Source: an uncultured bacterium
Lineage (GTDB): Bacteria > Patescibacteriota > Minisyncoccia > Phycocordibacterales > UBA6065
Reading direction: 5' to 3'
Assembly (NCBI GenBank): GCA_963841935.1
Contig: CAWJEP010000001.1
Span: 74,487-138,486 of the forward strand
Length of the DNA stretch: 64,000 nucleotides
Shown: positions 4,505 to 61,825 of the stretch, piece after piece
Layout of the letters: each line of letters starts with the position of its first letter
How positions within the stretch are numbered: the first letter of the stretch is position 1
Notes under the pieces: generated by a model
The model's input: only the letters and a program-made list of their open reading frames with translations
What the model was told of the DNA's origin: nothing
Database searches by the model: none
Translations under genes and position numbers: made by a program

Positions 4505-4516
4505 TATAATTTTCAC

Positions 4517-8787: not shown

Positions 8788-8790
8788 TTT

Positions 8791-8925: not shown

Positions 8926-9032
8926 AAAATATTTTCTTGAAAATTATTAACAACTTGTTCACATATTATTAACATAGTATGCGGTTCAAGACAAGTTCTA
9001 AAATGCTTTTGCGCGTATATACTTACAAAACA
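8926..9032. promoter_or_regulatory. AT-rich rpmH<>dnaA intergenic region; candidate oriC/dnaA promoter region with degenerate DnaA-box-like 9-mers (TTGTTCACA)
   Basis: It is the divergent intergenic region between rpmH and dnaA. It is AT-rich and contains a TTGTTCACA 9-mer and a TGTGGACTA reverse match. DnaA boxes were assessed by eye only. Confidence 0.35.
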
Positions 9033-10385: not shown

Positions 10386-10530
10386 AAAATAAAAATCAAC
10401 ATGAAATCAACAGCCAGAGAAAAAAACAAAAACCGCGGCGGCTTGCGTGGTAAGATTATGTTTAGGTTATCAACATACCCACAGCCATATTAGAATTATT
10501 AGATATTAAATTGAAATAAGTTATCCATAT
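10386..10530. promoter_or_regulatory. dnaA-dnaN intergenic region with DnaA-box-like motifs (TTATCAACA at 10467-10475; TTATCCATA at 10521-10529)
   Basis: These are near-consensus TTATCCACA-type 9-mers in an AT-rich spacer directly upstream of dnaN. The region is a plausible oriC segment or a dnaN regulatory site. Confidence 0.4.
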
Positions 10531-11628
10531 ATGAAGATCGAGTGCATAAAAGAAAAACTTTCCTCGGCTTTGACTAAAGCCGAAAAAATAACCAGCAAGA
10601 ACGCGACTTTACCTGTCCTTTCTTGTTTGATTTTGGAGACAAAAAACCAAAACATTATTGTTCGTTCCACAAACCTGGATTCGGCGCTGGAAATAGAGGT
10701 TCCCGGAAAAGTCGCCGTTCCCGGAAAAGTCGCCGTTCCCGGAACAATTTTCTCTTCGTTTATATCCTCGCTCAAAGAAAAATCAGTGACTCTTGATACC
10801 AAAGAAGGTAACCTGCTTGTCACGACGGAACACCACCAAACAACGATAAAAGCTTTAGCCCACGACGATTTTCCGGACATTCCGAGAATAGATAACGGTC
10901 ATTCTTTTTCCGTTCCGGCAAAAACTTTTCTCAAAGCTCTGCGTTCCGTGTCGTACAGCGCCTCCGTTTCTTCCGTCAAGCCGGAATTGGCCAGTGTTTA
11001 TATATACGGTAACGGGGACTTTCTTGTTTTTGTATCAACAGACTCTTTCAGACTTGCCGAAAAACGCCTAAAACTCAAAGAAGTTAAAGACGTCAAGGCC
11101 ATGGTCGTTCCCATAAAAAACGTCGGGGATATTTTGAAAGTTTTCGACGATAGCGATGAGGATATAAAGATTTCTTTCGAAAAAAACCAGATATCTCTTT
11201 CGACAAGGTCCGTGTATTTCGTTTCCCGCCTTGTCGACGCTCCGTTCCCCGACTACAAAGAGATTATTCCGAAAAATCCGACCACCGAGGCCACGCTTCT
11301 CAAACAAGACCTTACTGACGCCCTGAAGACACTCTCTGTCTTCTCAGACAAATTCAATCAGGCAAACATAAAAATCGTTCCATCTAAAAAGTCATTCATT
11401 CTTACGTCGAAAGCCAACGATATTGGTGAATCACAATCATCCGTTGACGCCGCAGTTTCTGGAGAATCCATAGACATGAATTTCAATCACAGATATATTT
11501 CCGAGTGTTTGCAATCCATAGACAGCGACGCGTTGTCTCTTTCTTTCAGCGGAGCGACCAAGCCGCTTGTCATAAGAGGTGTTTCGGATTCAAGCTTCAC
11601 GTATCTCGTGATGCCGATGAATAAATAA
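10531..11628 (+). CDS. dnaN: DNA polymerase III beta sliding clamp
   Basis: The N-terminus is MKIECIKEKLSSALTKAEKITSKNATLPVLSCLILE and the protein has three-domain length. It follows dnaA. It contains an in-frame tandem duplication VPGKVA VPGKVA VPG. Confidence 0.9.
   Translation: MKIECIKEKLSSALTKAEKITSKNATLPVLSCLILETKNQNIIVRSTNLDSALEIEVPGKVAVPGKVAVPGTIFSSFISSLKEKSVTLDTKEGNLLVTTEHHQTTIKALAHDDFPDIPRIDNGHSFSVPAKTFLKALRSVSYSASVSSVKPELASVYIYGNGDFLVFVSTDSFRLAEKRLKLKEVKDVKAMVVPIKNVGDILKVFDDSDEDIKISFEKNQISLSTRSVYFVSRLVDAPFPDYKEIIPKNPTTEATLLKQDLTDALKTLSVFSDKFNQANIKIVPSKKSFILTSKANDIGESQSSVDAAVSGESIDMNFNHRYISECLQSIDSDALSLSFSGATKPLVIRGVSDSSFTYLVMPMNK
10699..10746 (+). repeat. 18-bp in-frame tandem direct repeat (gttcccggaaaagtcgcc x2.6) inside dnaN
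   Basis: It was seen directly: two full units plus a partial third. The repeat encodes VPGKVAVPGKVAVPG in a beta-clamp loop. Confidence 0.8.
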
Positions 11629-11629
11629 T

Positions 11630-11893
11630 ATGTTTAATATTTCCGGGTATCTCCAAAAATTCAAAAAGCTCGGCGAGGACAAAGAAAAAACAAGACAGGT
11701 TATAGCGGACTCCTTCGGAAAAGAGACTGGGTTGGAAATAGATCCTTCGTCCATCCGCGTTTCTTCGGGAGAAATATCCATTTCCGTCCCGCCCGCGACC
11801 CAATCAGTGATTTTTATGAGGAAAGAGCGGATATTGAAAAATATAAGGGAGTCTTTGCCAAAAATTTCTATTGACCGGATACGCTGCCGTTGA
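11630..11893 (+). CDS. small DUF721/DciA-like protein immediately downstream of dnaN
   Basis: The 87-aa ORF starts 2 nt after the dnaN stop. Its position (dnaA-dnaN-DUF721) and the pattern RVSSGEISISVPPATQSVIFMRKERILKNIRE resemble DciA-family helicase-loading proteins. The assignment is tentative. Confidence 0.35.
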   Translation: MFNISGYLQKFKKLGEDKEKTRQVIADSFGKETGLEIDPSSIRVSSGEISISVPPATQSVIFMRKERILKNIRESLPKISIDRIRCR

Positions 11894-14423
11894 CGTTTAT
11901 TGTCGTCGTGGCGTCCACTTTGTTGAAGACGGAGTCCACGACTTCTATTTTTATGGTGTTTGTCGGCGACAGGGAATAAATATTTTTTATTGGGAACTTG
12001 AATACCGACTGGTTACCGTTTATGGTCGCGAGGATTCCGCCGTTCCCGTATATGAAAATCTTTTGGACGGGATATTTACCCGTCTCTGATATGTTTATAG
12101 TCGCGGTGTCGTTTTGGTTGTAAGGCGTGCCATTGTTTTCGTCCGTGACAGCTATGGAAGGAAAATTAGTCGGAACGTGTACATCGTCGTATTGCGTTGG
12201 CATTGAACCTGGTGATTCGGTCACATATCCGTTTTGAACCGCCCAATCGAGCACAGGTTTCTCCCAATTGGCGAATTGGGAGTCCGATGCTGGATTTGCC
12301 GGTGGCGGGCCTAGAGGGTTGTTTTTGTCTACCCAATAAAGAATAGAGTGAACGTTCGTTATCGCGATTTCTTTTTGCGTCTCCGGCGGGGTATATTGCG
12401 TTGCCAATTTTCCCGACACGGTGTCTATGGTATACGTTTGTCCGCCTTGCCATATACCGCGGAAAATCGGTTTGTCCGCGGACAAATCTTCCGGAGCGGG
12501 TTTTATGAAACTGTCAGCGGAAGTACTCGCCAAGGCGTCGGTCATAAGAGTATTCCAAAGGGGAGCTATCATTAGACCGGCTATTTTTTTGACCATCGGC
12601 GTGTCGTCGTCATTGCCGCCCCAAACTCCGACAACGATGTCAGGCGAATACCCTATGGTCCAGACATCATCATAATTGTTCGTCGTCCCGGTTTTTGCCG
12701 CGACATCATAGCCGGGAATATCGAAAACAGAATGAAGGCCGTATTCCGCCGCTCGCGCCTGATCATCGCTTAAAATGTCGGAGATTGTTTCCGCGATGTT
12801 CGCCGGCATAACAGATATTGGTGTTGGGTATTCGGCTTGTTCCAGAACATTGCCGCTCCCGTCCGTGACTTTTAGTATTGACCTGTAAGGCACGTAATTT
12901 CCGTTGTTGGCGAAAACATCGTAGGCGGTTGTCATTTCAAGTAGCGACACTCCACCACCACCTAAAACCAACGTGAGGCCGTACTTGTTTGGGTCAGTTC
13001 CAAGCGACGTGATACCCATTTTCTGGGCGAGGTTCAACGAGTCTCCAAGTCCGGCGAGATACGAAAGTTGTATTGACGGGATGTTTATTGATTGGGCCAA
13101 GGCGTCGCGCAAACTCATTGGTCCTCGATATAGTCCGTCGAAATCCTGCGGCATATAACACTGTGACGGGTCGGTTGAAGACGAAAGTGGTTGGCCTTCC
13201 GGGGAACATGAGGAGTCAAATTCCGTAGGCAAGTCGAATAATACCGTTTCGGGAGTGTAACCTTTCATGAAAGCTTCCGAATAAACGATGGGTTTAAACG
13301 TCGAACCCGGCTGACGGTTGTCGGCGGTCGCCACGTTAAAATTGCCCGGAGTTGTTGTTGAAAAATAATCGTATGAACCGACCATTGTGAGAATGTCTCC
13401 GGTTTTCGGGTCAACGGCGACCGTAGCGGCGTTTGACATATTGAAATTGGGTCCCTGATTTTCTATGTATGATTCCACCGCTTGCTCCGACTGTCTCTCT
13501 AGAGAATAATCCAAAGTCGTGATTACATTTAGTCCGCCGTTTTCTACTGCATCCGTGCCGTATTTTTGTTCGAGGTATTGGATAACGTACATCACAAAAT
13601 GAGGCGCCTTTATACTCTGCGAAGAACCCGGAAGGAAGGTCACTTTCTCGTTTATGGCTTGGTTGTACTGTGCCGCGGTGATGAAACCCAGCTGCTCCAT
13701 TTTTTGAAGCGTCAAATCCGCTCTGGCCGTGAGAGCCGCCGTGTTTGTTCCGTAGGGTGAATAGTAAGTTGGCGCTTGGGGGATCGAGGCAAGATAGGCG
13801 GCTTGAGCGATATCGAGACTACTCGCGTCCATACCAAAAAATTCTTTACTGGCTTCTTCGACACCGTAAACATTTCCTCCGTAGGGCACGTCGTTTAGAT
13901 AAAGCGTCAGAATATCATCTTTGGAAAAAATTTTTTCGATTTTTATCGCCAGAATCCACTCTTTTATTTTTCTAGCGATGGTCTTATCGTTGTTAAGGAG
14001 GGTATTTTTTATAAGTTGTTGGGTAATTGTCGAACCACCCTGAGCGAATCCGCCGGACAACACATCGTCCACCATCGCCCTAATGATGGAAAGCACGCGA
14101 ATGCCGCCGTGGCTGTAAAAACCGGCGTCCTCGATGGCGACAGTCGCGTTTTTTATGTTCGTAGAAATTTGGTCGGAAGTCACGACCGTGCGTCTGGCGT
14201 TTCCGGACACATCGTAAAGAAGCACCGCGCCGGTGCGGTCGTAAATTTTAGTCGATTGGTCCACTTCGCTTTGCTGGAACAGACTTATATCCGGAATGGA
14301 AAGAGAAGAAAACCAGAAAAAAAACACACTGCCAAGCAGGAGAAAGAAACAGAGGACGGCCATGAAAACATCCCGTTTGGTGTGCGCCTTAATATGAGTC
14401 AGAACGGCTCTGAAAAATTCCAT
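11868..14423 (-). CDS. class A penicillin-binding protein (bifunctional glycosyltransferase/transpeptidase, PBP1A-like) with C-terminal extension
   Basis: The N-terminal TM is followed by the GT51 motifs (EDAGFYSHGGI, GGSTITQQL). The transpeptidase motifs are STFKP (SxxK), SxN and KTGTT. The protein is 851 aa. Confidence 0.9.
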   Translation of the reverse strand: MEFFRAVLTHIKAHTKRDVFMAVLCFFLLLGSVFFFWFSSLSIPDISLFQQSEVDQSTKIYDRTGAVLLYDVSGNARRTVVTSDQISTNIKNATVAIEDAGFYSHGGIRVLSIIRAMVDDVLSGGFAQGGSTITQQLIKNTLLNNDKTIARKIKEWILAIKIEKIFSKDDILTLYLNDVPYGGNVYGVEEASKEFFGMDASSLDIAQAAYLASIPQAPTYYSPYGTNTAALTARADLTLQKMEQLGFITAAQYNQAINEKVTFLPGSSQSIKAPHFVMYVIQYLEQKYGTDAVENGGLNVITTLDYSLERQSEQAVESYIENQGPNFNMSNAATVAVDPKTGDILTMVGSYDYFSTTTPGNFNVATADNRQPGSTFKPIVYSEAFMKGYTPETVLFDLPTEFDSSCSPEGQPLSSSTDPSQCYMPQDFDGLYRGPMSLRDALAQSINIPSIQLSYLAGLGDSLNLAQKMGITSLGTDPNKYGLTLVLGGGGVSLLEMTTAYDVFANNGNYVPYRSILKVTDGSGNVLEQAEYPTPISVMPANIAETISDILSDDQARAAEYGLHSVFDIPGYDVAAKTGTTNNYDDVWTIGYSPDIVVGVWGGNDDDTPMVKKIAGLMIAPLWNTLMTDALASTSADSFIKPAPEDLSADKPIFRGIWQGGQTYTIDTVSGKLATQYTPPETQKEIAITNVHSILYWVDKNNPLGPPPANPASDSQFANWEKPVLDWAVQNGYVTESPGSMPTQYDDVHVPTNFPSIAVTDENNGTPYNQNDTATINISETGKYPVQKIFIYGNGGILATINGNQSVFKFPIKNIYSLSPTNTIKIEVVDSVFNKVDATTTINVNGSVSGQ

Positions 14424-22797: not shown

Positions 22798-22870
22798 CCG
22801 CCCATAGCTCAGTCGGTAGAGCAGCTCCCTTTTAAGGAGAGGGTCGTTGGTTCGATTCCAACTGGGCGGA
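22798..22870 (+). tRNA. tRNA-Lys (anticodon UUU)
   Basis: Hand-folded cloverleaf: acceptor CCGCCCA/TGGGCGG, D-arm GCTC-AGTCGGTA-GAGC, anticodon loop CTTTTAA, T-arm GTTGG-TTCGATT-CCAAC, discriminator A. No CCA is encoded. Confidence 0.85.
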
Positions 22871-22910
22871 CAATGTCTTCGACTTTAGAAATCAAAACGG
22901 CGGATCATAT

Positions 22911-24535: not shown

Positions 24536-25786
24536 TTATTTCAAAATTTTTCTTAATTCCTCCTGTGCCACGGAGGAATCGCTCCACGGTATTTTGCTTC
24601 CGTTCGCGGTCATTATGTATGGGTCCGTGCCTTTGCCGGTGATGAGAACCGCGTCGCCGGATTTAGCCAGAGAAATGGCCTTATTTATAGCTATTCTTCT
24701 GTCCATTATGACAAGCGGCTTCGCGTCAGGAATTGCCGCCGCCATTCCCTCGACAATTTTCTGCGGGTCATCATCATAAGGGTCTTCGTTGGTGAGGATT
24801 ATTTCGTCACATTCTTTTTCGGCGATTTTCGCCATTTTGTCTCTTTTCCAAACATCGCGGCCGCCGCCGGTATTGCCGAGGACGCAGATTCGGCGGCGGC
24901 CTTTGAATGCGTCATACAAAGCCTGAAGCGATTCCGGCGTGTGGGCATAATCGACGACGACATCGAAATTTTGTCCCTCTTTTATCCGTTCCACACGACC
25001 AGGAATGTACGAAAATTTTTCCAAGGCCGCCACTATTTTCTCTTTCGGTATGCCTTGGGTTTCGGCGTATGTAACGGCGGCAAGTACATTCATCATATTG
25101 AAATCGCCGGTGAGAGGCGTCTTGTAACCTTTCGTGTCGGAAAGGGAAAAAGTCAGCTTTCCGCCGAAATTTTTGGCCAAAAATTTCGGCGTTTCTTTGT
25201 CGTCCGCGTTTCCGACGAAAATAGTTTTCGGTTTTTTCGATCTTACGACAGCGTCGGCTATGGAAAGCTTGGCCGCGACATAATTTTCATATGAGCCGTG
25301 AGCCTCGATGTGTTCTGGCGCCAAGTTTGTGAATATGAGTCCGTCAAAATCTATAAATCTGTGTCGGAAAAGTTCCGCACCTTGGCTGGTCACTTCCAAA
25401 ATCGCATAATCACATTTCGCGTCCACGGCGTGCCGCAAAAATCTTTGGACGAAAAATCTTCCGGGCATAGACATCTTATACATATTCGGTCGCGACTCAC
25501 TTCCAATTTTAAATCTGATGGTGTTTGAGACAGCGGTTTTATATCCAGCTTCCTCAAGAATCGCGTTTAAGATTTCCGTCACGGAACTTTTTCCTTTCGT
25601 CCCCGTGACGGCAATGACTTTTATATGTCGAGAAGGCCCGCCTCGACTCGACGTCTTCGGCGAGGCGGGGAAGCGATATACAACCGCCGAAAGAAAGGCC
25701 AAGGAGAAATGATACGCCGGAGCGAATGCCGAAAAAATCTTTGCCGGTATAAATTTCTTGGTCTTTTGGAGGAATGTGTCCATCAT
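24536..25786 (-). CDS. murE: Mur ligase family protein, MurE-like (UDP-MurNAc-dipeptide:diamino-acid ligase), short N-terminal domain
   Basis: The P-loop is VTGTKGKSS. DYAHTPESL and the downstream VLGNTGGGRDVWKRDKMAKIAEK..ILTNEDPYDDDP block are MurE-like; here EDPYD replaces the DNPR motif. The N-terminal region contains palindromic repeat copy 1. Confidence 0.75.
   Translation of the reverse strand: MMDTFLQKTKKFIPAKIFSAFAPAYHFSLAFLSAVVYRFPASPKTSSRGGPSRHIKVIAVTGTKGKSSVTEILNAILEEAGYKTAVSNTIRFKIGSESRPNMYKMSMPGRFFVQRFLRHAVDAKCDYAILEVTSQGAELFRHRFIDFDGLIFTNLAPEHIEAHGSYENYVAAKLSIADAVVRSKKPKTIFVGNADDKETPKFLAKNFGGKLTFSLSDTKGYKTPLTGDFNMMNVLAAVTYAETQGIPKEKIVAALEKFSYIPGRVERIKEGQNFDVVVDYAHTPESLQALYDAFKGRRRICVLGNTGGGRDVWKRDKMAKIAEKECDEIILTNEDPYDDDPQKIVEGMAAAIPDAKPLVIMDRRIAINKAISLAKSGDAVLITGKGTDPYIMTANGSKIPWSDSSVAQEELRKILK
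25637..25669. repeat. GC-rich palindromic repeat, copy 1 (cccgcctcgactcgacgtcttcggcgaggcggg), inside the murE 5' coding region
   Basis: It is a 9-bp perfect inverted repeat, CCCGCCTCG...CGAGGCGGG, with a 15-nt spacer. It shares 32 of 33 positions with copy 2 at 54440-54472. It encodes PASPKTSSRGGPS in murE. Confidence 0.8.
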
Positions 25787-51918: not shown

Positions 51919-52785
51919 TTATTTTCCGCCGATTATGCAGACGATCGAGCCGGAGAATTTCCGGCCGGCGGAGATGGCGCGGCAAAGTCCGGCAAAGGAG
52001 AGCGCTCCGTTTGGCGTCGTAGGGACGCCAAACGGGGCAAGTTTTTCTTGCGCCGATTTTATTTCCTCGTTTGAAACAATCCAGCCGAAGCCATTTGTTT
52101 GAGATACGAGAGCCATAACTTTTTCTCTTCTATGGGCGACTTTGTCCGTTATCGCGCTCGCGACGGAAGTTTCTCTCAAGTCTTTTCTCTCGTCGAAAAT
52201 CGCGGCCATTGGATGACAAGAGCTTGTTTGGACGATGTGGATTTCCGGCGAATTTTTTCTCGCGAGGAAAAATTCGCCCAAAGCCTCGGCCGTCGTGCCG
52301 GAAGAGGTCGCTATAAATACCGCCAACAGGTTCGGGATTTCCGAGATTTCTTTGGCCAAAGATTCGTAGCCGATGAGGGCCGTGTCGTCAGTTGATTGGC
52401 GCAAACTTCGCGCGCCAAGATGAATTGTTTCGAGCAGTGCTTTCAGAGGTTTTTCTTTCTCCGAAATTTTTATGTTTTCGTCGGCCAAAGAAAAAAGAGT
52501 AGATTTTTTATCCAGGGATATATTTTGTCCGACGAAAATTTCAAGAGAAAGTCCGGCACCACCAGCGTTTTTTTCTTTTATGTGGCGCGCCGCGGCGAGA
52601 GCGGCGTTGCCGGAGCTTGATATGGAAAACTTCTTTTCACCGCGGCGCGCGTACTCGTCGATCATTACGGGGATCGAACGGCCTTTATGCGAGCCAAGGG
52701 GGTGCAAGTCTTCGCGCTTCAGAAAAAGTCTAGGTATATTAAGTTCTTTGGCGAGCGCTGGATATTCTTCCTGTGGAGTAACCAT
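51919..52785 (-). CDS. PLP-dependent enzyme of the tryptophan-synthase-beta/threonine-synthase fold (fold type II)
   Basis: The PLP-lysine motif is LHPLGSHKGRSIPV. There is a glycine-rich loop and a C-terminal region. The start is ambiguous (52785 or 52824); either choice overlaps the divergent gene. Confidence 0.65.
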   Translation of the reverse strand: MVTPQEEYPALAKELNIPRLFLKREDLHPLGSHKGRSIPVMIDEYARRGEKKFSISSSGNAALAAARHIKEKNAGGAGLSLEIFVGQNISLDKKSTLFSLADENIKISEKEKPLKALLETIHLGARSLRQSTDDTALIGYESLAKEISEIPNLLAVFIATSSGTTAEALGEFFLARKNSPEIHIVQTSSCHPMAAIFDERKDLRETSVASAITDKVAHRREKVMALVSQTNGFGWIVSNEEIKSAQEKLAPFGVPTTPNGALSFAGLCRAISAGRKFSGSIVCIIGGK

Positions 52786-52826
52786 TCTTGTATAGTATCT
52801 TTTTTCACGTATCATATAAAGCACTT

Positions 52827-52994
52827 ATGAAATGCACGTGTCCTGAATGCAAAAACGAAATAGAACTTTCGCGATACCCGAAACTCGCCGCCGGTCACAC
52901 GATAGAATGCGGCAGTTGCGGCATACTTCTTCAAATAAAAAATATTTCGAAAGACGGAATTGTGGAAACGGAAATCATTGACGAAGGAAAGTAG
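52827..52994 (+). CDS. small zinc-ribbon protein, LysW-like (amino-group carrier protein fold?)
   Basis: The sequence MKCTCPECKNEIELSRYPKLAAGHTIECGSCGILLQIKNISKDGIVETEIIDEGK has the CPEC...(G)E.IECG.CG..L pattern of LysW/ArgW-type ribbons. It lacks the canonical EDWGE C-terminus. Confidence 0.35.
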   Translation: MKCTCPECKNEIELSRYPKLAAGHTIECGSCGILLQIKNISKDGIVETEIIDEGK

Positions 52995-52997
52995 CGC

Positions 52998-54494
52998 TTA
53001 AACTTTCGCCAGCTTTTTTACCGTTTCCTCAATCATTCCTCTAAAGCCGTGAGAGCCCAAGAACGCGATACAGCCGTTTTCGTCAGGATTTTTCGTTATT
53101 TCTTCCACGAGTTTCGCGTCATCGTCAACGTAAATGACGTTTTTGTGAGTTTTTGAAATGATTTTCGCCAGTCCGTCGCCTTCAAAAGTCTTTTGAGGAT
53201 TTTCTTCGTCAACTTTGAGTTTCGTAAGTTTGGGAATGACGACAAGGTCGGCGTTTTCGAAAGCGCCGCCGTAGGACGGCGCGGATTCTTTCGTGCGATT
53301 GCCGGTGTTTGGTTCATACACGGCGGTGATTTTGCCTTTGTAGATTTCACGCAAGTTTTTCAGTACGGATTTCACTTTTTCCGGAGAGTGAGCTATATCG
53401 TCAATGACCGTTATGCCGTGTTCATATCTTTTCTCCATACGGCGCTTCATCCCTTTGAAAGTTTTTATGGCGTCGGTGATATCTCCAGGCGCGATGCCAA
53501 TTTCTTTCGCCATGGCAAAACAACCCGTTATGTTTTCCGCGTTGTAGGCACCGAGCAGGGGGCTTTTTATTTTGTATTTTTTCCCGTGATAATCAATGTC
53601 AAACTCAATGCCGTCTTTTGATTGCCTAATATTTTCATAACGATACGTCGCGTCTTCTTTTTTGCCGTAGGTAACGGGCGAAGGAAGCGGCATTTGCGAA
53701 TTTTCAACTGTTTGAGCATTCATCTGATTTGGCGAGTTTTGAAAATTCGCAAATGCCGCCTTCCGGGCCTCTTCGTTATCTGCGCATACTACGATTTTTC
53801 CGTTTTCCGGAATCATTTTCAGAAGTTTCTCGAAAGCCGAGAAATACGACTCTTCCGTCGGATACATATCGGCGTGGTCCCAAGATACGGCGGTGAGCAG
53901 GAGGTGCGTCGGCTTGTAATGAAAAAATTTCGCTTCATTGTCCCATTTTGCCGTTTTGTATTCGTCGCCTTCGACCACGCTCCAACTCCCTGAATCAATA
54001 GCCGCCGACGGTGCACCGTCTTGCGTCAATCCGCCAATCATGTATGACGGATGCATTTTCGCGTGTTTCAAAATATGCGAAAGAAGCGCGCTCGAAGTCG
54101 TCTTGCCCCAAGTGCCGGTGCAGACGATTGAATTTTTCTTTATCAAAACTTCCCCGATGATTTCCGGAAATGATTTAAACGGAATTTTATTTTCTTGCGC
54201 GTAAACGAATTCCGGATTCGTCGAACCGATGGCGTTACCCACGACGACGAGGTCCGGCACGCCGTCAGCGATCATTTTTTCCGGATGCCAGCCGCTATAG
54301 TAGGGAATGCCGATGTTTTTCAAATGCGTCGAAACCGGCGGGAAAAATCCGGCGTCGCTTCCGGTGACTTTCCATCCTTTTTGCCAAAGCGCCGTCGCGA
54401 CGGCGCTCATAGCCACGCCGCAAATGCCTATAAAATGGACCCGCCTCGACTCGACGCCTTCGGCGAGGCGGGCTTTTTTAGTTACCGATTTCAT
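52998..54494 (-). CDS. murC: UDP-N-acetylmuramate--L-alanine ligase (MurC/Mpl-like)
   Basis: The N-terminal Rossmann region is HFIGICGVAMSAVATALWQKGWKVTGSD and the P-loop is CTGTWGKTTSSALL. The start is taken at MKSVTKK (54494); the listed ORF is longer. The N-terminal codons contain palindromic repeat copy 2. Confidence 0.85.
   Translation of the reverse strand: MKSVTKKARLAEGVESRRVHFIGICGVAMSAVATALWQKGWKVTGSDAGFFPPVSTHLKNIGIPYYSGWHPEKMIADGVPDLVVVGNAIGSTNPEFVYAQENKIPFKSFPEIIGEVLIKKNSIVCTGTWGKTTSSALLSHILKHAKMHPSYMIGGLTQDGAPSAAIDSGSWSVVEGDEYKTAKWDNEAKFFHYKPTHLLLTAVSWDHADMYPTEESYFSAFEKLLKMIPENGKIVVCADNEEARKAAFANFQNSPNQMNAQTVENSQMPLPSPVTYGKKEDATYRYENIRQSKDGIEFDIDYHGKKYKIKSPLLGAYNAENITGCFAMAKEIGIAPGDITDAIKTFKGMKRRMEKRYEHGITVIDDIAHSPEKVKSVLKNLREIYKGKITAVYEPNTGNRTKESAPSYGGAFENADLVVIPKLTKLKVDEENPQKTFEGDGLAKIISKTHKNVIYVDDDAKLVEEITKNPDENGCIAFLGSHGFRGMIEETVKKLAKV
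54440..54472. repeat. GC-rich palindromic repeat, copy 2 (cccgcctcgactcgacgccttcggcgaggcggg), followed by TTTTTT on the + strand; inside the murC N-terminal codons
   Basis: It is identical to copy 1 except for one position. It encodes ARLAEGVESRRV in murC (minus strand). Confidence 0.8.
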
Positions 54495-55180
54495 TGGAGT
54501 GTAAGTATAACCTTTAGCGGCTCGATATCTGTTCGCCACCCGCCTCGCGTTGACAAGTCTCCGCGAGTCGAGGCGGGTTTTTCGCCGTCGAACCACTCTC
54601 CTCCGCGGAATTGAAGTTTATATGTATCGCTCGAGCGTTGAAGTGAGCCGAGATAAATATATTTTTTGCCGAGTTCTTTCGCACGCTCGATGGCTATTAT
54701 CATCATGCCAAGTCCACGCGACGGTTCCCGGGGATTTTCCATATAGAATGGATAGCTATAGTGAGAAATGTTTTTTGTTTCAAAACATATCGCGTAGCCG
54801 ATAGTTTTTTTCTCCTCCGTGTAGATCAGAAATTTATTAAAGTTCGAAGCGTCTCTGTCGGTAAGCAACTCTTTTATTTTGTTTGCGGAAAAAACGGCGT
54901 TGCGTTTTTCGTAAAAATCTTTTGCGAGTTTACTGATAGACCAATCATAATTTTCGTAAGGAATTTTCGCGGTCGAAAGGGAAATATTTTCCGATTTTTT
55001 CGCCACGCGCCTGTTCTCACTCGTCATTTCGAATTTCGAAAGGTCTACTCGGAAACTTCGCGTCTTATTCATCACGCCTTTGCCCACGCGGGTGAAAACA
55101 TACCCGGCGTCATACATTTTCTCGATGTTTTCCGCCGAAAAATCGGTAATTATTTTCGTGTCCCAGTTGAGGTACGGCAT
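54491..55180 (-). CDS. aminoacyl-tRNA--protein transferase-family protein (Bpt/ATE C-terminal domain-like, GNAT fold)
   Basis: The C-terminal block GLGMMIIAIERAKELGKKYIYLGSLQRSSDTYKLQFRGGEWFDGE resembles the ATE_C/Bpt signature (...AKELGLPYVYLGYWI..S.KM.YK..F.P.E...G.W). Its 3' end contains palindrome copy 3. Confidence 0.5.
   Translation of the reverse strand: MPYLNWDTKIITDFSAENIEKMYDAGYVFTRVGKGVMNKTRSFRVDLSKFEMTSENRRVAKKSENISLSTAKIPYENYDWSISKLAKDFYEKRNAVFSANKIKELLTDRDASNFNKFLIYTEEKKTIGYAICFETKNISHYSYPFYMENPREPSRGLGMMIIAIERAKELGKKYIYLGSLQRSSDTYKLQFRGGEWFDGEKPASTRGDLSTRGGWRTDIEPLKVILTLQ
54539..54577. repeat. GC-rich palindromic repeat, copy 3 (cccgcctcgcgttgacaagtctccgcgagtcgaggcggg), followed by TTTTT; in the 3' end of the bpt-like gene, 45-85 nt upstream of the murC start
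   Basis: It has the same terminal arms CCCGCCTCG/CGAGGCGGG, extended to CCCGCCTCGACTCGCG in inverted orientation. It encodes PASTRGDLSTRGG. Confidence 0.75.
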
Positions 55181-55184
55181 AGCA

Positions 55185-56321
55185 TTAATGAAGCGCTATC
55201 CAGATACCGAGAAGAACGAAAGCTAAATGAATAACCCAGAAACGCATTATCGTTTTCTCCTCGCTCCAGCCTAAAAGTTCGAAATGATGATGAAGCGGCG
55301 CCATCTTGAATATTCGTCTGCCGAAAAAAACGCGACCGATGACTTGGACGACGACGGAAAGCGCCTCGACATAAAACATAAAGGCAATGAACGGAAGAAT
55401 TGCCATAGCGTTGATGACCAAAGCGTTTATGGCGAGAAGCGTGCCTAGCGCAAGCGACCCCACGTCGCCCATTTGGAATTTAGCGGGCTTGACGTTGAAG
55501 AACGTGTACGCGACCAAAGCTCCGGCCGTGACGGCATTCAGTATCGCAAGCGGTCCATAGCCGAAGATGGCGCTCAAAAACGAAAGGGCGATAAATGTCG
55601 GAATGAGCATGCCGCCGGCGAGACCATCCATGCCGTCGGAAATGTTCACGGCGTTTGCGGTAAACATCACGACGATTATGATGAGCGGAATAATCCAAGC
55701 GCCGATATTTAGAAATCCGTGAAAGGGGATGTAAATTTCTTTCCATGTTTCTCCTAGTTTGAAGTAAATCCACCAAGCGGTAATGGCGCCGGCGGCGAAT
55801 TGCAGGAGCAATTTTTCGTGCGCGTGGACGCCCGTGCCGCGCTTACTGCCAAACGACGAAGCAAAAGTCTTGAAAGCGGCCCACGGCAAGACGAGAGCGT
55901 ACCAGATTCTCGCCAAAATATTTTTATGGACGCGGACTAGTATTAATGTTTGCCGAAAAGACCTGTCGCGGCGTTTTCTTCCGAGGACGGAGAACATATC
56001 GTCTAGCGCCCCGAGGACCGCGGCGATAAGCATGCCGCCTATCGGTACCCACGTAAATTGTCTATTCCAGTTAAAAAGAAAAGTCAGAAGTCCGACGGAA
56101 AGAACGACGATAAGTCCGCCCATAATCGGCGTGTGAGCTTTACTTGAACGGCCGTCAATGCCAAGAGTCGGGTCCGCTTGGCCGTTCGTTCGCCAGATTT
56201 TGAAATGGTAAAGAAAAGCTACGACAATAGGCGTCAAAAGCAGACTCACAAAAAGTCCAAGCAGGCCGAAACCTATGGTGTGAGAAACTACGGCAATCTG
56301 TTCTGGAGAGAATTCGGACAT
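55185..56321 (-). CDS. mraY: phospho-N-acetylmuramoyl-pentapeptide transferase MraY
   Basis: The motifs are HTPIMGGLIVV, NAVNISDGMDGLAGG, MGDVGSLALG and HHHFEL, in a 10-TM protein. Confidence 0.9.
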   Translation of the reverse strand: MSEFSPEQIAVVSHTIGFGLLGLFVSLLLTPIVVAFLYHFKIWRTNGQADPTLGIDGRSSKAHTPIMGGLIVVLSVGLLTFLFNWNRQFTWVPIGGMLIAAVLGALDDMFSVLGRKRRDRSFRQTLILVRVHKNILARIWYALVLPWAAFKTFASSFGSKRGTGVHAHEKLLLQFAAGAITAWWIYFKLGETWKEIYIPFHGFLNIGAWIIPLIIIVVMFTANAVNISDGMDGLAGGMLIPTFIALSFLSAIFGYGPLAILNAVTAGALVAYTFFNVKPAKFQMGDVGSLALGTLLAINALVINAMAILPFIAFMFYVEALSVVVQVIGRVFFGRRIFKMAPLHHHFELLGWSEEKTIMRFWVIHLAFVLLGIWIALH

Positions 56322-56335
56322 AAATGAAGTCTAAA

Positions 56336-57099
56336 TCAGCTTTCGAGAGCCCGCAAACGACGAATGGAAATATCTTTGGCTTCCGAAGAGGACACGAAAG
56401 TGTAATTCTCTTTTCCAGTTTTGTCTTTTTCCGTCCAAACGCCGTTCACTATAGGTTCGTTATTTTTTACGAAAATCGTTCCGCGCCTGACGCCATGATT
56501 GTATAGTCCGTCAGAAGGCCACATATACGAGTGAACGTAATTTATTTTTTTCGCGTCGTTCAAAACCTCGACGGACTCGACGACCATCATATGATTGTAT
56601 TTTTTTTCTGGACCCGTACCGATGACCGAGATGAAATCTCCGGCTTCCACCGCGGATTCCGACACGGCGTTTGAATTCCGACTGTGGGAGAAGTCGAGAC
56701 GCCCGTGTTTTCCGCCGGACGAAGCCAATGTTTTAATTTTCTTTTGAAACCGCTCCACGGTTTTACCGACGAAGACAATTTCTTTCCGGTTTTTGCGGAT
56801 ATTTCCACCGAAAGGACGTGGTAAGCGAAGCCGGAGCAATCGACGCCGAGATTGTGCTCGACGAGAAACTTTTTCAATGCCGCGGAGTCCATTTTTTTTA
56901 TGCCGGCGCGGTCTCGGATAGAAAACATCTCCGCCTCCTCGGCGATTTCTTCTGGGCGCCCTTTGCCGACGAGGGCGCGTAGACCAGCTCGGATTTTCGT
57001 CCGGCGGTTGTTGAAATACGGCGTCTGACACCCCGCTCCGATGGGGAGAGACAAGTATTTTTCCACGACTTTTTGGGCTTCGGAAGATAGGATGTTCAT
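56336..57099 (-). pseudogene. NlpC/P60-family cysteine peptidase (cell-wall hydrolase-like), split by a frameshift near 56760
   Basis: The N-part (frame of 56587..57099) contains the catalytic Cys motif NLGVDCSGFAYHVL. The C-part (frame of 56336..57031) contains GDFISVIGTGPEKKYNHMMVVESV with His and downstream polar residues. The two frames overlap over about 56587-57031. This is either an authentic pseudogene or a sequencing error. Confidence 0.5.
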
Positions 57100-58283
57100 T
57101 TTTTGAAAATTATTGAAGAAATTTCTTCTCCAACGGAATTGAGTTTTCCGTGTTTTTCCATAATACCCTTGTCGGAGCGGACGCGCGATAGGTCGGCGTT
57201 GTGCTCGGTATTTTCGTATTCGATAAAGGAAAATCCAGCCTCGGGAAGCCGCTCAACAGGGACGGGGTGATTTTCCTGCTTCGCTTTTATTCTCAAAACT
57301 ATTTGCGCCCCATCTTTTATTTTTTGAATCTCGCTTACGTTTTCGCCGAGTAGCGCTTTTATATGAGCTTCAAAAGTCGTCATATTTTTTCCGGCGGCTT
57401 TTTGCAAGATGGATTCGCATGTCGTAGATGCCGGCTGGCGCGCGTTTATCTCAAGCAGATATATTTTTCGTGATTTCTCGTCGAGAATGACATCAATACC
57501 GAAAAGCCCGCGCCAACCGTCTTTTTTCATTTTTTCTCCGACTTTCTCCGCTATTCCAAAAATATTTTCTTTTTCCTTGTCGGACAAAATTTTATTCGGC
57601 AATTTCCAATCGTTGCCGACCGTGGAAAAAGGGTTGTCCGTGAAATCGGGAAGGCCTGTGATCTGATAGCTTATGTTTGCCGGAAAGATTCCGTTTTTTG
57701 CCGCGATGACATTTAGCGTGAATGGAATACCTTCAATATAATCAGCCACACGCACGGGTCTTTTGGGAAATTTTGTTTTGAATTCGGAAAGTTTTTCTTT
57801 TGACTCGATGAGAAAAGTGCCTTCACCCGTGTGAGAAAAATTGAATTGGAGGATAAACGGTTTTTTGTAATCGATATCATCGAGAATTTTGATTTCGTTT
57901 TTCGGCATCAAGTCTGCCAATTGACCAAGCCATTTTGATTGGGAATTTTTTCCTTCGATTTCCGAGGCTTTGTCCGCCGATGGATTGAGAAGATTTAATT
58001 TTTGCTTGTTAACGGCTTCTTCCGCGCTTTGATTGCCGACAAAAACGACAACCGAAGCACCTTTGTCGTCTATGAATTTTTTTGTTTCGGCCAACAGAAG
58101 AATCCTGCTAGTCGGCAAGAGTTCATCACTTGACACCAAGTGAACATTTTTCGGATATTTGGCCTGAACCACCTTCCCATATTCCGTGTTGTTTGAAACA
58201 ACAAAGTAATTTCCGGCTGGTTCTACGCCCAAGGCGTGTTCAATATCGCGCGTCACATAGACGATAGGTTTGTCCCATTTCAT
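57096..58283 (-). CDS. ATP-grasp superfamily ligase (carboxylate-amine ligase)
   Basis: The ATP-grasp C-terminal signature is WRGLFGIDVILDEKSRKIYLLEINARQPAST. It is 395 aa and is the first gene of the operon ATP-grasp, NlpC/P60, mraY, bpt-like, murC. Confidence 0.65.
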   Translation of the reverse strand: MKWDKPIVYVTRDIEHALGVEPAGNYFVVSNNTEYGKVVQAKYPKNVHLVSSDELLPTSRILLLAETKKFIDDKGASVVVFVGNQSAEEAVNKQKLNLLNPSADKASEIEGKNSQSKWLGQLADLMPKNEIKILDDIDYKKPFILQFNFSHTGEGTFLIESKEKLSEFKTKFPKRPVRVADYIEGIPFTLNVIAAKNGIFPANISYQITGLPDFTDNPFSTVGNDWKLPNKILSDKEKENIFGIAEKVGEKMKKDGWRGLFGIDVILDEKSRKIYLLEINARQPASTTCESILQKAAGKNMTTFEAHIKALLGENVSEIQKIKDGAQIVLRIKAKQENHPVPVERLPEAGFSFIEYENTEHNADLSRVRSDKGIMEKHGKLNSVGEEISSIIFKK

Positions 58284-58303
58284 CCCTCGTATGCTACCAA
58301 AAT

Positions 58304-59011
58304 ATGGCCAAAATGCTATTGTTCTTCAATATGAAAGGCAACCTATATATTGTCGCCACGCCGATTGGGAATCTCGAAGATATGACTTTTCGCGCGGTTA
58401 GGATTCTTTCCGAAGCAGATTTGATTTTGTGCGAAGACACGCGTGTCACGGCGAAACTTTTGGCAAAATACGAAATCAAGAAAAGCTTGCGTCGTTTTGA
58501 CGCGCACTCAAGCGAAAGCGGCAGAGAAGCGATAATCGAACTTTTGCGCGAGGGAAAAAATATCGCTCTCGTGACCGACGCCGGCACGCCGGGGATTTCC
58601 GACCCCGCGTCGCTTCTAGTGGAGGAAATCAGGCGAGAGTTTGGAGCCGAGGCGCCAGTCGTTCCGATTCCAGGCGCCTCGGCTCTCACGACGGCGCTTT
58701 CCGCCTCCGGCGTGCCGGCGTCGGATTTTCTTTTCTTGGGGTTTTTGCCGCACAAAAAAGGCAGACAGACACTCATGAAAGAAATCGCCGAATCAAAAAG
58801 AGCTGTGGTTTTTTACGAGTCGCCGCATCGTATTATGAAAGCTCTCAATGAGCTCGACTTGGTCGTACCCGAAAGCAAAATTATTATTGCGCGCGAACTT
58901 ACAAAGATTTACGAGGAATATATTTCCGGCACGCCGAGAGAGATAATAAAAATACTTACAGATACGCCTGAGAAGCAAAGAGGGGAATTTGTTGTTATAA
59001 TCTCCGCATGA
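58304..59011 (+). CDS. rsmI: 16S rRNA (cytidine1402-2'-O)-methyltransferase RsmI
   Basis: The motifs GNLYIVATPIGNLEDMTFRAVRIL and LILCEDTR form a tetrapyrrole-methylase fold. The start may be the internal Met at 58331. Confidence 0.85.
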   Translation: MAKMLLFFNMKGNLYIVATPIGNLEDMTFRAVRILSEADLILCEDTRVTAKLLAKYEIKKSLRRFDAHSSESGREAIIELLREGKNIALVTDAGTPGISDPASLLVEEIRREFGAEAPVVPIPGASALTTALSASGVPASDFLFLGFLPHKKGRQTLMKEIAESKRAVVFYESPHRIMKALNELDLVVPESKIIIARELTKIYEEYISGTPREIIKILTDTPEKQRGEFVVIISA

Positions 59012-59223: not shown

Positions 59224-59297
59224 CCGCCCTTAGCTCAGTTGGTTAGAGCATCGAGCTTATACCTCGAGGGTCCTTGGTTCGAGTCCAAGAGGGCGGA
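59224..59297 (+). tRNA. tRNA-Ile (anticodon UAU), AUA-decoding isoacceptor encoded directly with T34
   Basis: Acceptor CCGCCCT/AGGGCGG, D-arm GCTC-AGTTGGTTA-GAGC, perfect anticodon stem TCGAG/CTCGA with loop CTTATAC, variable GGGTC, T-arm CTTGG-TTCGAGT-CCAAG, discriminator A. The body resembles the tRNA-Ile(GAU) at 49831. Confidence 0.65.
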
Positions 59298-61588
59298 CAA
59301 GAGATATCCATGCACCACGGATTTGTCTGTTTTCGTATTTTTAGGTAAGGTCGAAGAGGGTTTTTCGACCCAAAATTGAAGGCCCTGCGCTGTCCGCCGC
59401 CGCGGACAGCGCAGGGCTTTTTTATTCGAAATAAATTTCTTTTTGCCTGCGCCGAAGCAAGCTCTTCGTTAAGCGCCGGAAAATCCGACAAGTTTTCGTC
59501 TTTTTCGACGATTTTCTCCGCTTCGGCGCGGGCGGCTTCGACCATTTTCAGGTTTTGCAGAGCTTCCATGCCGACGTCCGAAATGCCCCATTGTTTTCTG
59601 CCGTAAAGCTCGCCCGCGCCGCGGAGTTTCAAATCCTCCTCGGCGAGTTCAAAGCCATTTTTGGCGTTTACTATGGCACTAAGTCTCGCGAGAGTTTTTT
59701 CTCCTGCCGTTTCAGCGTAGAGGAAACAATAAGCCTGATGCGTGCTTCTGATGACCCGGCCGCGCAGTTGATGAAGTTGGGCGAGACCGAATCTTTCCGC
59801 GCCTTCGATGAGGATGACCGTGGCGTTTTCGACATTGACGCCCACTTCGACTACGGATGTGGCGCAGAGAATATTTATTTTTCCAGCTTTGAAATCGTCC
59901 ATGATTTTTTCTTTTTCGGCGTCTTTCATCTTGCTGTGGAGGATTCCTATTTCATATTCCGGAAAAATATCTTTTTTCAGGCGTTTGGCTTCGGCTTTGA
60001 CCGAACGGGCAATGAGAGCCAGGGCTTTTGTTTGGTCCGGTTCGTCGATGCGCGGACAAATGATATAGGCTTGCCGTCCCGATTTGAGTTCTAGTCGGAT
60101 TTTTTCGTACATTTCCGCGCGGGAATTCTCCGTGACGACCTCCGTGATAATTTTTTTCCTGCCACTTGGCATCTGGTCGAGAAGAGAGAGGTCAAGGTCG
60201 CCGTAAATCGTGAGAGCGAGAGTGCGGGGAATGGGCGTCGCGGTCATTGAGAGCAAGTGCGGGACGATTTTTTCTTTTTGCGTCAATTTTTTCCTTTGCG
60301 CGGTGCCGAAACGATGTTGTTCGTCGATTATGACATATGCGAGATGTTTGAAGCGGACTTTTTTTTGAATCAAAGCGTGTGTGCCGATAAGAACAGGGAT
60401 TTCTCCGTTAGCCACCCATTTCAAAAGTTGCGGACGGGATATGTCGGTCCAGCCGGCGGGATTTACTTTCGACGGAAATTTTCTCGCCCCGCTTCCGGTA
60501 ATGAGGGCGATAGGAATTGGGAAATGGCGAAAGTATGAAATGAAAGATTCGAAATGCTGTTTCGCCAATATTTCCGTCGGCGCCATATAGGCGACTTGAA
60601 GAGTGCCGAAATTCTGATTTTTTGGCCTCGCCGCCGCCACGGCATATGCCGTGGCGGCGGCCACGGCGGTTTTCCCCGAACCGACGTCGCCTTCGAGAAG
60701 GCGCGCCATGGGCGCGCCGCGCTTGAAATCAGTGAGAATCGTCTCGATGCTTTTCTTCTGCGCTTCCGTCGGCTCGAAAGGAAATTTCGAGACGAAGTTT
60801 GCGAGTTCGGCGAACGACTTGTCGATGACGAATGCCGGGTCTTTGGCCCGGACAGCCCTTTCTTTTTGTCTCGCTAGCTGAATAAAAAATATTTCCTCGA
60901 AAGCGAATCTTTTTCTCGCGGACATTGCGTCGTTTTGGTCCTGCGGCGCGTGAATCCAAACCATGGCCGTTTGAAAATGCGGCAGATTATATTTTTTCAA
61001 AATTTCTTCCGGAATCGGATCTTTCACCTCGTCCAAAACTCCGCTTTTGAAAATTTTCTGGACGGCGTGATATATCCAATTACTGGAAATTCCCGCAGTT
61101 TCCGGATAAACGGGATAGAGAGAGTGTGTCATACCGTCTTCACCGAATAGCGACGAGCCGGCGACATCCGGAATTTTCGGCACGCGTTCTATTTTCGGAT
61201 TGGAAAAATAAAGTTCGCCTTTTCGCTCGGCCACTTTGCCTTCGACGCGCACGATTGAACCCTCGGCGATCATCTTTGCGATGTACGGCTGGTTGAACCA
61301 GACGATTTTCATTTTTCCAGTCTCGTCTTCGACGTGAGCTTCGGCCATCGTGATTCTCGTGTGAAATCCTTTGCTTGCCTTGAGTTTAGAAATTTTTCCA
61401 AAAATCGTCGCCGTCGCTCCTTTGGCTAGCGAATCGATTGTCACGAAGTCCGCCGTGTCGCCGTACCTTACGGGGAAGTGATAAAGCAAATCCTCTACCG
61501 TTTTTATTCCAAGTTTCGCCAGAGCGGATTTTTGTCTCGTGTCGGTCCGAAAATGCTCTTCGAGGGAATCCGTGAGATTCATTTTCAT
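59243..61588 (-). CDS. recG: ATP-dependent DNA helicase RecG
   Basis: The wedge/N-terminal region is SALAKLGIKTVEDLLYHFPVRYGD. Helicase motif I is GDVGSGKTAVAAATAYAVAAA, motif II is IIDEQHRFG, and the TRG-like C-terminal region is present. The start is taken at ATG 61586-61588, directly after tRNA-Ser. The ORF stays open to 59243, giving about a 55-aa C-terminal tail that runs through the terminator hairpin and antisense to tRNA-Ile. Confidence 0.8.
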   Translation of the reverse strand: MKMNLTDSLEEHFRTDTRQKSALAKLGIKTVEDLLYHFPVRYGDTADFVTIDSLAKGATATIFGKISKLKASKGFHTRITMAEAHVEDETGKMKIVWFNQPYIAKMIAEGSIVRVEGKVAERKGELYFSNPKIERVPKIPDVAGSSLFGEDGMTHSLYPVYPETAGISSNWIYHAVQKIFKSGVLDEVKDPIPEEILKKYNLPHFQTAMVWIHAPQDQNDAMSARKRFAFEEIFFIQLARQKERAVRAKDPAFVIDKSFAELANFVSKFPFEPTEAQKKSIETILTDFKRGAPMARLLEGDVGSGKTAVAAATAYAVAAARPKNQNFGTLQVAYMAPTEILAKQHFESFISYFRHFPIPIALITGSGARKFPSKVNPAGWTDISRPQLLKWVANGEIPVLIGTHALIQKKVRFKHLAYVIIDEQHRFGTAQRKKLTQKEKIVPHLLSMTATPIPRTLALTIYGDLDLSLLDQMPSGRKKIITEVVTENSRAEMYEKIRLELKSGRQAYIICPRIDEPDQTKALALIARSVKAEAKRLKKDIFPEYEIGILHSKMKDAEKEKIMDDFKAGKINILCATSVVEVGVNVENATVILIEGAERFGLAQLHQLRGRVIRSTHQAYCFLYAETAGEKTLARLSAIVNAKNGFELAEEDLKLRGAGELYGRKQWGISDVGMEALQNLKMVEAARAEAEKIVEKDENLSDFPALNEELASAQAKRNLFRIKKPCAVRGGGQRRAFNFGSKNPLRPYLKIRKQTNPWCMDISCPPSWTRTKDPRGISSML
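59382..59423 (+). terminator. rho-independent terminator (GCCCTGCGCTGTCCGC-cgcc-GCGGACAGCGCAGGGC + TTTTTT) downstream of tRNA-Ile(UAU)
   Basis: It is a 16-bp perfect stem plus a T6 run on the + strand. It lies inside the 3' coding tail of the recG ORF on the opposite strand. Confidence 0.7.
60630..60661. repeat. 32-bp perfect palindrome (gccgccgccacggcatatgccgtggcggcggc) inside recG
   Basis: It was verified base-by-base as its own reverse complement, centred on CATATG. It encodes AVAAATAYAVAAA just after the Walker A motif. Confidence 0.85.
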
Positions 61589-61589
61589 G

Positions 61590-61676
61590 CGGAGACGATG
61601 GGATTCGAACCCATGAGGCCCTTGCGAGCCTAACACCTTAGCACGGTGCCGCTTTCGACCACTCAGCCACGTCTCC
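61590..61676 (-). tRNA. tRNA-Ser (anticodon GCU)
   Basis: It is a type II tRNA on the minus strand: acceptor GGAGACG/CGTCTCC, anticodon stem GCACC/GGTGT with loop GTGCTAA, long variable arm TAGGCTCGCAAGGGCCTC, T-arm ATGGG-TTCGAAT-CCCAT, discriminator G. Confidence 0.85.
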
Positions 61677-61825
61677 AATATGAAAGACATTAACACGCTG
61701 GGGTGTTTTTTTCTATACTGCACCCTTGCCATCTCCGCCGGCGTATGAATAGTACGCGGGCTTCACGGCTCGTGTTTAAGAACAAAAAAATACGGCGAAA
61801 GATTAATAGATTAAAAATAAAAGTT

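Follow-up and report, generated by a model that had tools for sequence, protein, structure and literature searches.

Why should a homologue of aminoacyl-tRNA transferases be encoded between mraY and murC, two genes of peptidoglycan-precursor synthesis, and why should an ATP-grasp ligase and a cysteine amidase be encoded beside them? This question is raised by a block of five genes at positions 52998-58283 of a 64,000-nucleotide (nt) stretch of contig CAWJEP010000001.1 from an uncultured bacterium of the Patescibacteriota; the whole stretch is called the window below. The transferase homologue is referred to as Bpt-like, after its resemblance to ATE and Bpt enzymes, and the amidase as P60-like, after NlpC/P60. 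We identified the genes and the fold classes of their products, and found that the genes are linked across classes of the candidate phyla radiation (CPR, Patescibacteria) and that two pairs of them occur as gene fusions. A functional tie of this gene set to the cytoplasmic synthesis of peptidoglycan precursors is well supported. We give a probability of roughly 55% to the reading that the genes form a conserved CPR module around MurC and MraY, with peptidoglycan precursors as its cytoplasmic targets and the Fem-type mechanism proposed below. Full-text literature searches found no description of such a module. Related loci and related proteins carry labels of the form Lxxx and Pxxxx, respectively.

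Linkage of the Bpt-like gene with murC and mraY

The five open reading frames (ORFs) of the block abut one another with almost no intergenic space and all lie on the minus strand (Table 1), just as the initial annotation had described them. The stop codon of the ATP-grasp gene and the start codon of the P60-like gene overlap in ATGA, mraY and the Bpt-like gene are spaced by 4 nt, and the Bpt-like stop codon overlaps the murC start codon in another ATGA (54491-54494), provided that MurC begins with MKSVTKK; the ATG at 54494 is the probable murC start. These overlaps suggest that the genes may be co-translated. A scan for promoters and terminators was uninformative, with promoter-like sites below the counts in shuffled sequence and noisy terminator-like sites. 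Dedicated donor tRNAs were considered and rejected, none of the 11 tRNA genes of the window being located inside the block.

The linkage was followed in a scan of Paceibacteria with one genome per GTDB species, which gave 80 loci; the counts refer to the loci with sufficient flank. The mraY gene was found directly upstream of the Bpt-like gene in 73 of 73 loci, murC downstream of it in 61 of 63, and the ATP-grasp and P60-like genes upstream of it in 45 of 49. The module is larger than five genes, since a gene for a LysW-like zinc-ribbon protein and a gene for a threonine-synthase (ThrC)-like, pyridoxal phosphate (PLP)-dependent enzyme of the PALP fold, both located just outside the block, travel with it, each in 50 of 51 loci. 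The five-gene unit that had been proposed is right in that all five genes are linked and incomplete in that it leaves out these two. The LysW-like gene of the window lies directly beyond murC on the opposite strand, where it converges with murC and diverges from the gene of the PLP enzyme.

More distant relatives were found by a search with the profile of the Bpt-like family. The protein P0373 (645 aa), encoded on three contigs of as many assemblies, consists of a Bpt-like domain, a linker rich in Pro and Ser and a complete ligase of the MurC type, and the fusion gene stands in a dcw (division and cell wall) cluster of the order MraZ-RsmH-FtsL-FtsI-MurE-fusion-MurA. The lineage of P0304 (L087 and L088) encodes, in this order, a short MurE, the Bpt-like protein and a MurC/Mpl-type ligase, the last with overlapping stop and start codons; two flanking paralogues of the P60-like gene (31% and 26% identity) are present in L087 and, 2 kb away, a PLP enzyme homologue and a divergent LysW-like gene (about 11490-12555). 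The Dojkabacteria locus L089 has the order Bpt-like, MurC, PgeF (Cu-oxidase_4), MurB and MurA. All seven genes are co-directional in L094, where the order LysW-like (3569-3772), Bpt-like, MurC, PALP (6673-7833), ATP-grasp (40% identity), P60-like (35% identity) and MraY is unlike that in the window. The ATP-grasp and P60-like genes are themselves fused to a single ORF of 653-660 aa in L034 and L040. Reassortment of the same genes into different orders, together with two independent fusions, would be hard to explain otherwise and therefore argues for a shared function. The worry that the linkage might not be conserved is thus removed both by the Paceibacteria counts and by the Bpt-like::MurC fusion.

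Two further observations concern the distant loci. The protein P0356 (809 aa; L086 7001-9430) combines a Bpt-like domain with a PPDK_N domain of the ATP-grasp type and a PEP-utilizers swivel domain, and a Mur ligase gene is located 4.4 kb upstream of its gene. A Cu-oxidase_4 gene (YfiH/PgeF-type) adjoins the Bpt-like/MurC pair in two distant lineages (L089 3355-4179 and L094 2574-3443). The Cu-oxidase_4 family includes a peptidoglycan editing factor, and by analogy a PgeF-type neighbour would fit quality control of precursors in these two clusters.

Table 1 Coordinates of the block genes, their neighbours and the two palindromic elements near the Bpt-like/murC junction
Feature	Position in the window	Strand	Remarks
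ATP-grasp carboxylate-amine ligase, not Ddl-like	57096..58283	-	395 aa; Pfam ATP-grasp_3 3.7e-11
NlpC/P60-like cysteine amidase gene, interrupted	56336..57099	-	~254 aa if repaired; 1-nt deletion at 56691-56692
MraY, phospho-MurNAc-pentapeptide transferase	55185..56321	-	378 aa; Glycos_transf_4 3.8e-25; TIGR00445 1.9e-50
ATE/Bpt-like single-GNAT protein	54491..55180	-	229 aa; ATE_C 24.0 bits; predicted aminoacyl-tRNA transferase fold
MurC-type UDP-MurNAc ligase	52998..54494 (ORF listed 52998-54596)	-	Mur_ligase, Mur_ligase_M and Mur_ligase_C; TIGR01082 8e-84
LysW-like zinc-ribbon protein	52827..52994	+	55 aa; Zn_ribbon_LysW 5e-5; LysW/ArgW carrier 2.2e-5
Threonine-synthase-like PLP enzyme (PALP fold), start codon uncertain	51919..52824	-	301 aa; PALP 6.8e-33
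Palindromic element in the C-terminal loop of the Bpt-like protein	54540..54576		encodes a 14-aa insertion
Palindromic element, second copy, murC codons 8-18	54441..54471		1-nt difference from the copy at 25638-25668

Products of the module genes

The Bpt-like protein belongs, on the basis of its predicted structure, to the GNAT fold of aminoacyl-tRNA transferases, which comprises ATE, Fem and the aminoacyl-phosphatidylglycerol synthases (aaPGS). Its AlphaFold2 (AF2) model had a predicted local distance difference test score (pLDDT) of 90.9. Foldseek matched the model with a probability of 1.00 to ATE1 (query TM-score, TMq, 0.63), alanyl- and lysyl-phosphatidylglycerol synthases (aaPGS/MprF), FemX of Weissella and the peptide synthases Sbb17/Sba18; the best E value was 5e-10, TMq was at most 0.64, and only aminoacyl-tRNA-dependent transferases appeared at the top of the list. 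The family profile gave nothing significant against PDB sequences. Many Arg and Lys residues are invariant in the family, which would be compatible with tRNA binding but is no proof of it.

It had been considered that the protein could be an ordinary Aat/Bpt enzyme of the N-end rule, and the data spoke otherwise. The likeness to ATE1 and Bpt is clear enough: ATE1 is the best structural match, the ATE_C score is borderline in the window (gathering score 25) and exceeds the threshold in relatives from other CPR lineages (27-41 bits), and the motif ...YLGS...YKLQF.GGEW... resembles the conserved core of ATE_C. In contrast to ATE1 and Bpt, however, no Pfam match to ATE_N was obtained, and the N-terminal cysteine cluster is missing; the only Cys of the protein, at residue 132, is not conserved, and the N-terminal half has none. 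It scored 18-34 bits (best 34.4) with the NCBIfam arginyltransferase equivalogs, the cutoffs of which are 170-358. The family is also small and largely restricted to CPR. The 1751 homologues have 212-240 aa, and all named ones are assigned to Paceibacterota or Patescibacteria, while the family profile detected 374 clusters at E<=1e-3 among 1.84 billion representatives. This number appears too low to include the widespread canonical Bpt family, which again argues that the protein is not an ordinary Bpt. Bpt genes are usually found in a clpS/aat-type context, and here the context is one of cell-wall genes.

With FemX, FemAB and MurM, the Bpt-like protein shares the GNAT-derived aminoacyl-tRNA transferase fold, a probably cytoplasmic location and the ties of its gene to genes of peptidoglycan-precursor synthesis. 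FemX consists of two GNAT domains. The Bpt-like proteins of 215-229 aa have a single domain and gave no Pfam match to FemAB, whereas FemX has ~335 aa and the two-GNAT FemXAB proteins ~330-420 aa. In structure, the Bpt-like protein is closer to ATE1 than to FemX (TMq 0.63 vs ~0.5), and its gene is linked or fused specifically to that of MurC, the first stem-peptide ligase, not to late steps.

Membership of the ATP-grasp protein in the ATP-grasp superfamily is clear from its ATP-grasp_3 score (43.8 bits, cutoff 23.2) and from the residues E278, N280 and R282 of LIEINARQP, which are invariant in the family and constitute the E-x-N Mg-binding motif (E-x-N-x-R). The NCBIfam matches were weak (PRK06524 58 bits, cutoff 684; Ddl_archaea 32 bits, cutoff 500), and the family profile matched nothing significantly among PDB sequences. 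The closest folds to its AF2 model (pLDDT 95.2) were PurK, PurD, biotin carboxylase and L-amino-acid/peptide ligases (E ~1e-18). No Ddl was present among the best 50 fold matches, and neither the Dala_Dala_lig family of Pfam nor any bacterial Ddl model of NCBIfam was matched. The protein is therefore unlike Ddl in both sequence and fold, and the suspicion that its gene is simply a divergent ddl is not borne out. It resembles Aslfm-type D-aspartate ligase and Ddl in having the ATP-grasp fold and a gene within a cell-wall precursor cluster but shows no family- or fold-level preference for Ddl.

The P60-like gene consists of two overlapping ORFs in different frames (56587-57099 and 56336-57031). 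Frame A runs as far as ...RPAENTGVST, after which FSHSRNS... follows in frame B; jointly, they align to RPAENTGVSTFSHEKNS of an intact 230-aa homologue from L002, by comparison with which the loss of one T was located. In all 63 related loci which carry both halves, the gene is a single ORF. The frameshift, already noticed in the initial annotation, was found again in the Logan assembly of run ERR11630400, the contig of which (L081) is 100% identical to the window over 53500-58317 (~4.8 kb). Since this assembly is independent, the frameshift is not an artefact of one assembler. Programmed frameshifting was rejected as an explanation, since a slippery heptamer is missing at ACTTCTCC and the gene is in frame in each of the 63 relatives.

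The NlpC/P60 assignment holds at the superfamily level only. Matches to NLPC_P60 were below the threshold in 31 of 40 family members (best E 2.2e-5), others matching Amidase_6 or CHAP, and the window protein scored 15.6 bits against the hidden Markov model cutoff of 23. The expected catalytic residues are nevertheless there: Cys88 and His170 occur in all 40 sequences, conservation of His190 is at least 90%, and GIDCSGF, which contains Cys88, aligns with the catalytic motif of LytE. A search of PDB sequences with the family profile gave nothing significant. No signal peptide or membrane segment was seen by eye in the Bpt-like, ATP-grasp and P60-like proteins, which so judged are probably cytoplasmic. 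The P60-like protein is therefore unlikely to cleave peptides of the mature wall, which corrects the initial interpretation.

The pairing of ligase and amidase is reminiscent of glutathionylspermidine synthetase/amidase (GspSA), in which an ATP-dependent amide ligase is likewise paired with a papain-like cysteine amidase of the NlpC/P60-CHAP clan, as in the L034 and L040 fusions. By this analogy, the pairing suggests that the same bond may be made and broken. Differences exist: the window proteins have no detectable sequence similarity to GspS, and GspSA, a ligase and a CHAP cysteine amidase in one protein, has the domain order opposite to that of the L034/L040 fusion.

The LysW-like protein, called by other pipelines as well (54-55 aa), scored 23.3 bits with Zn_ribbon_LysW (cutoff 27). 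Its C-terminal tail EI(V/I)DEGK, which reads EIVDEGK in the window, is invariant across 68 loci, and the homologues in the distant clusters L087 and L094 end in EEEK. A protein search found 28 close relatives, none of which is a fusion. The PLP enzyme matched the ThrC and SbnA families weakly, and its homologues encoded within the module are 33% (L087) and 29% (L094) identical to it. The LysW/LysX carrier system of lysine and arginine biosynthesis in Thermus and archaea offers a parallel, since its genes likewise encode an ATP-grasp ligase and a hydrolase alongside a zinc-ribbon protein that is small and has an acidic tail at its C-terminus. Unlike LysW, however, the proteins of the window family do not end in an EDWGE-type tail, and the ATP-grasp protein is not RimK/LysX-like. 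The partners here are a ThrC-like PLP enzyme, an aminoacyl-tRNA transferase homologue and MurC instead of LysZ/Y/J/K.

MraY scored 89 bits with Glycos_transf_4 (cutoff 27) and 172 bits with TIGR00445, slightly below the cutoff of 192; its translation contains PLHHHFE with the HHH motif, and it is 39% identical to E. coli MraY. The best NCBIfam model for the ligase was murC (TIGR01082, 282 bits, cutoff 335), ahead of mpl with 230 bits. As a class A penicillin-binding protein (PBP; 11868-14423) and MurE are encoded elsewhere in the window, the organism makes peptidoglycan. This MurE (24536-25786, minus strand) is shorter than the usual MurE model by ~70 residues at the N-terminus and was matched only by Mur_ligase_M and Mur_ligase_C. 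The same N-terminal shortening was observed in the MurE copies adjoining the Bpt-like genes of distant lineages (L087 5739-7004 and L082 7201-8532), and L087 has two MurE paralogues, one full-length and one short.

Palindromic elements and other features of the window

A palindrome of 31-37 nt, CCGCCTCG-N-CGAGGCGG, occurs in three copies in the window, against 0.01 expected. These elements had been said to mark the junction between the Bpt-like gene and murC. They do exist, but they are located inside coding sequence on either side of the junction, not between the genes, and the third copy (25638-25668) is likewise inside a gene, at the N-terminus of MurE. The murC copy, also at the N-terminus of the protein, differs from the murE copy by 1 nt and is read in a different frame. 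The copy in the Bpt-like gene codes for part of a surface loop; the 14 aa correspond to a gap in most homologues in the alignment, and pLDDT is low at residues 203-207. The palindrome looks like a small mobile element which inserts in frame into genes, by analogy with the Rickettsia palindromic elements.

Among the tRNA genes, the one at 22798-22871 (plus strand) was assigned the anticodon TTA by ARAGORN and would read the stop codon UAA, and, with the anticodon stem in a different register, the loop is the canonical CUUUUAA of tRNA-Lys(UUU). The suppressor reading is unlikely because TAA is the commonest stop codon of the window (15 of 30 genes). A tRNA-Ile gene with the anticodon TAT lies at 59224-59298 (plus strand). 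The RecG ORF (59243-61732, minus strand) overlaps tRNA genes at both ends, so the true start and end of the gene lie inside the ORF. At 2701-6497 (plus strand), genes for TraC-like, TraG P-loop and type IV secretion pilin domain proteins adjoin yidC-dnaA-dnaN (7694-11628), which is a replication-origin gene set and is followed by the class A PBP gene.

Readings of the module and their meaning for CPR walls

From homology, fold and gene context, we infer the substrates, the order of the steps and any roles of the LysW-like and PLP proteins; context and fold likewise suggest that the module products may tailor the stem peptide or a cross-bridge. In the Fem-type mechanism that we favour, the ATE/Bpt-like protein would take an amino acid from a charged tRNA and attach it to an intermediate of the MurC pathway at a free amino group; this would be Fem-type chemistry carried out by the ATE branch of the common fold. 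The ATP-grasp enzyme would then make a second amide bond at the expense of ATP, and the P60-like amidase would hydrolyse or edit that bond, a ligase/amidase pair comparable to glutathionylspermidine synthetase/amidase.

Several observations weigh against this mechanism. Four Paceibacteria loci have no ATP-grasp and P60-like genes within 8-9 kb, and unrelated genes share the same synteny, namely rsmI in 35 of 49 loci and rlmH between the Bpt-like gene and murC in 11 loci. Since a single class is concerned and unrelated genes are co-syntenic, the Paceibacteria linkage alone could be inherited gene order. The genes inserted between the Bpt-like gene and murC in relatives were also considered as module members and rejected as heterogeneous, those other than rlmH being unrelated ORFs. 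Remoter relatives of the Bpt-like protein (tiers near E 1e-20), with neighbours that do not look like CPR genes and with one cluster member labelled Bacteroidota, show no wall context, so within the family it is only the CPR branch that has the association. The amidase is frameshifted in this genome, so that at least this component can apparently be lost. A simple Fem or Asl analogy leaves the LysW-like and ThrC-like PLP proteins without a role. Finally, a separate 'pentaglycine bridge' (FemAB-type) protein was reported to be common in Parcubacteria (PMC4508563), so that an enzyme for cross-bridges may be present already.

The two proteins without a role are accommodated if the LysW-like protein serves as an amino-group or peptide carrier. 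The ATP-grasp enzyme would then act as LysX, and the invariant ...DEGK tail of the LysW-like protein would be loaded by either the Bpt-like or the ATP-grasp enzyme; the PLP enzyme would modify the tethered amino acid, the P60-like protein would free the product as LysK does, and the MurC/Mpl-type ligase would put it on UDP-MurNAc. Instead of tailoring a finished stem, the module would thus make or supply a preformed peptide or a wall amino acid of a non-canonical kind. This pathway agrees with the LysW-type zinc ribbon and its conserved acidic, Lys-ending tail, with the co-travelling of the LysW-like gene with the PALP, ATP-grasp and P60-like genes, and with its position in L094 directly upstream of the Bpt-like gene and murC. 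Similarly, the L087 ligase encoded beside the Bpt-like protein scores equally for MurC and for Mpl, a peptide-adding ligase, and the MurE copies near the module lack the N-terminal UDP-binding domain. The tail, however, is not the EDWGE motif of LysW, and the ATP-grasp protein folds like PurK and L-amino-acid ligases, with no RimK or LysX in Pfam, in NCBIfam or among the best 50 fold matches. No partners of the LysY/Z/J type were seen, and the LysW-like gene of the window is on the opposite strand. We consider such a carrier pathway unlikely, though with a tangible chance of being correct. Its fullest version, that the LysW-like carrier is the site at which CPR assemble a non-canonical wall amino acid or part of the stem peptide, with the transferase and the ATP-grasp enzyme extending the ...DEGK tail, the PLP enzyme modifying, the amidase releasing and the MurC/Mpl-type ligase (fused to the transferase in some lineages) installing the product on UDP-MurNAc, is in our estimation quite unlikely.

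The genes could also be unrelated neighbours in function, with a divergent N-degron transferase acting on proteins and a small-molecule synthetase/amidase pair kept next to mraY and murC by frozen gene order in small genomes. The JGI label of the homologues, arginyl-tRNA--protein arginylyltransferase, would agree with this, as do the shared synteny of rsmI and rlmH and the remote relatives outside a wall context. It is nevertheless very unlikely in view of the Bpt-like::MurC fusion on three contigs, of at least four distinct arrangements of the gene set from divergent CPR lineages (two of them named, Paceibacteria and Dojkabacteria) and of a Bpt-like protein without ATE_N, whose scores fall far short of the cutoff of any Bpt equivalog. 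Nor is much to be expected of the explanation that nothing non-canonical is made and that the ATP-grasp protein is the D-Ala-D-Ala ligase of the lineage, or a non-orthologous replacement in another canonical step. In other bacteria, MurC can be fused to Ddl (NF011171, among the weaker MurC matches), and the E. coli ddl query, used together with murD, murF, murG and ftsW, had no match in the window and 1.43 Mb of related loci, which as local neighbourhoods only are weak evidence. With neither a Dala_Dala_lig match nor a Ddl among the best 50 structural matches, with a fusion to a cysteine amidase that is unexpected for Ddl, and with the Bpt-like, LysW-like and PLP partners left unexplained, this replacement appears highly improbable.

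A large part of bacterial diversity belongs to the Patescibacteria, nearly all of which are uncultivated. The findings presented here point to an undescribed step in the building of their wall precursors, by way of a tRNA-dependent-type enzyme in the murC/mraY gene set. Peptidoglycan synthesis is a core function in Parcubacteria and is retained in the tiny core genomes of Patescibacteria (PMC4508563). If the module acts on wall precursors, the wall chemistry of CPR or its route of assembly departs from the textbook pathway. Were the stem to be built on a carrier, core cell-wall synthesis would have a protein-templated, tRNA-dependent branch. The module proteins are small and soluble, which makes the hypothesis testable in vitro without cultivation. 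If the module does act on wall precursors, the aminoacyl-tRNA transferase fold would also have been recruited to cell-wall synthesis twice independently, the Fem enzymes being the first case.

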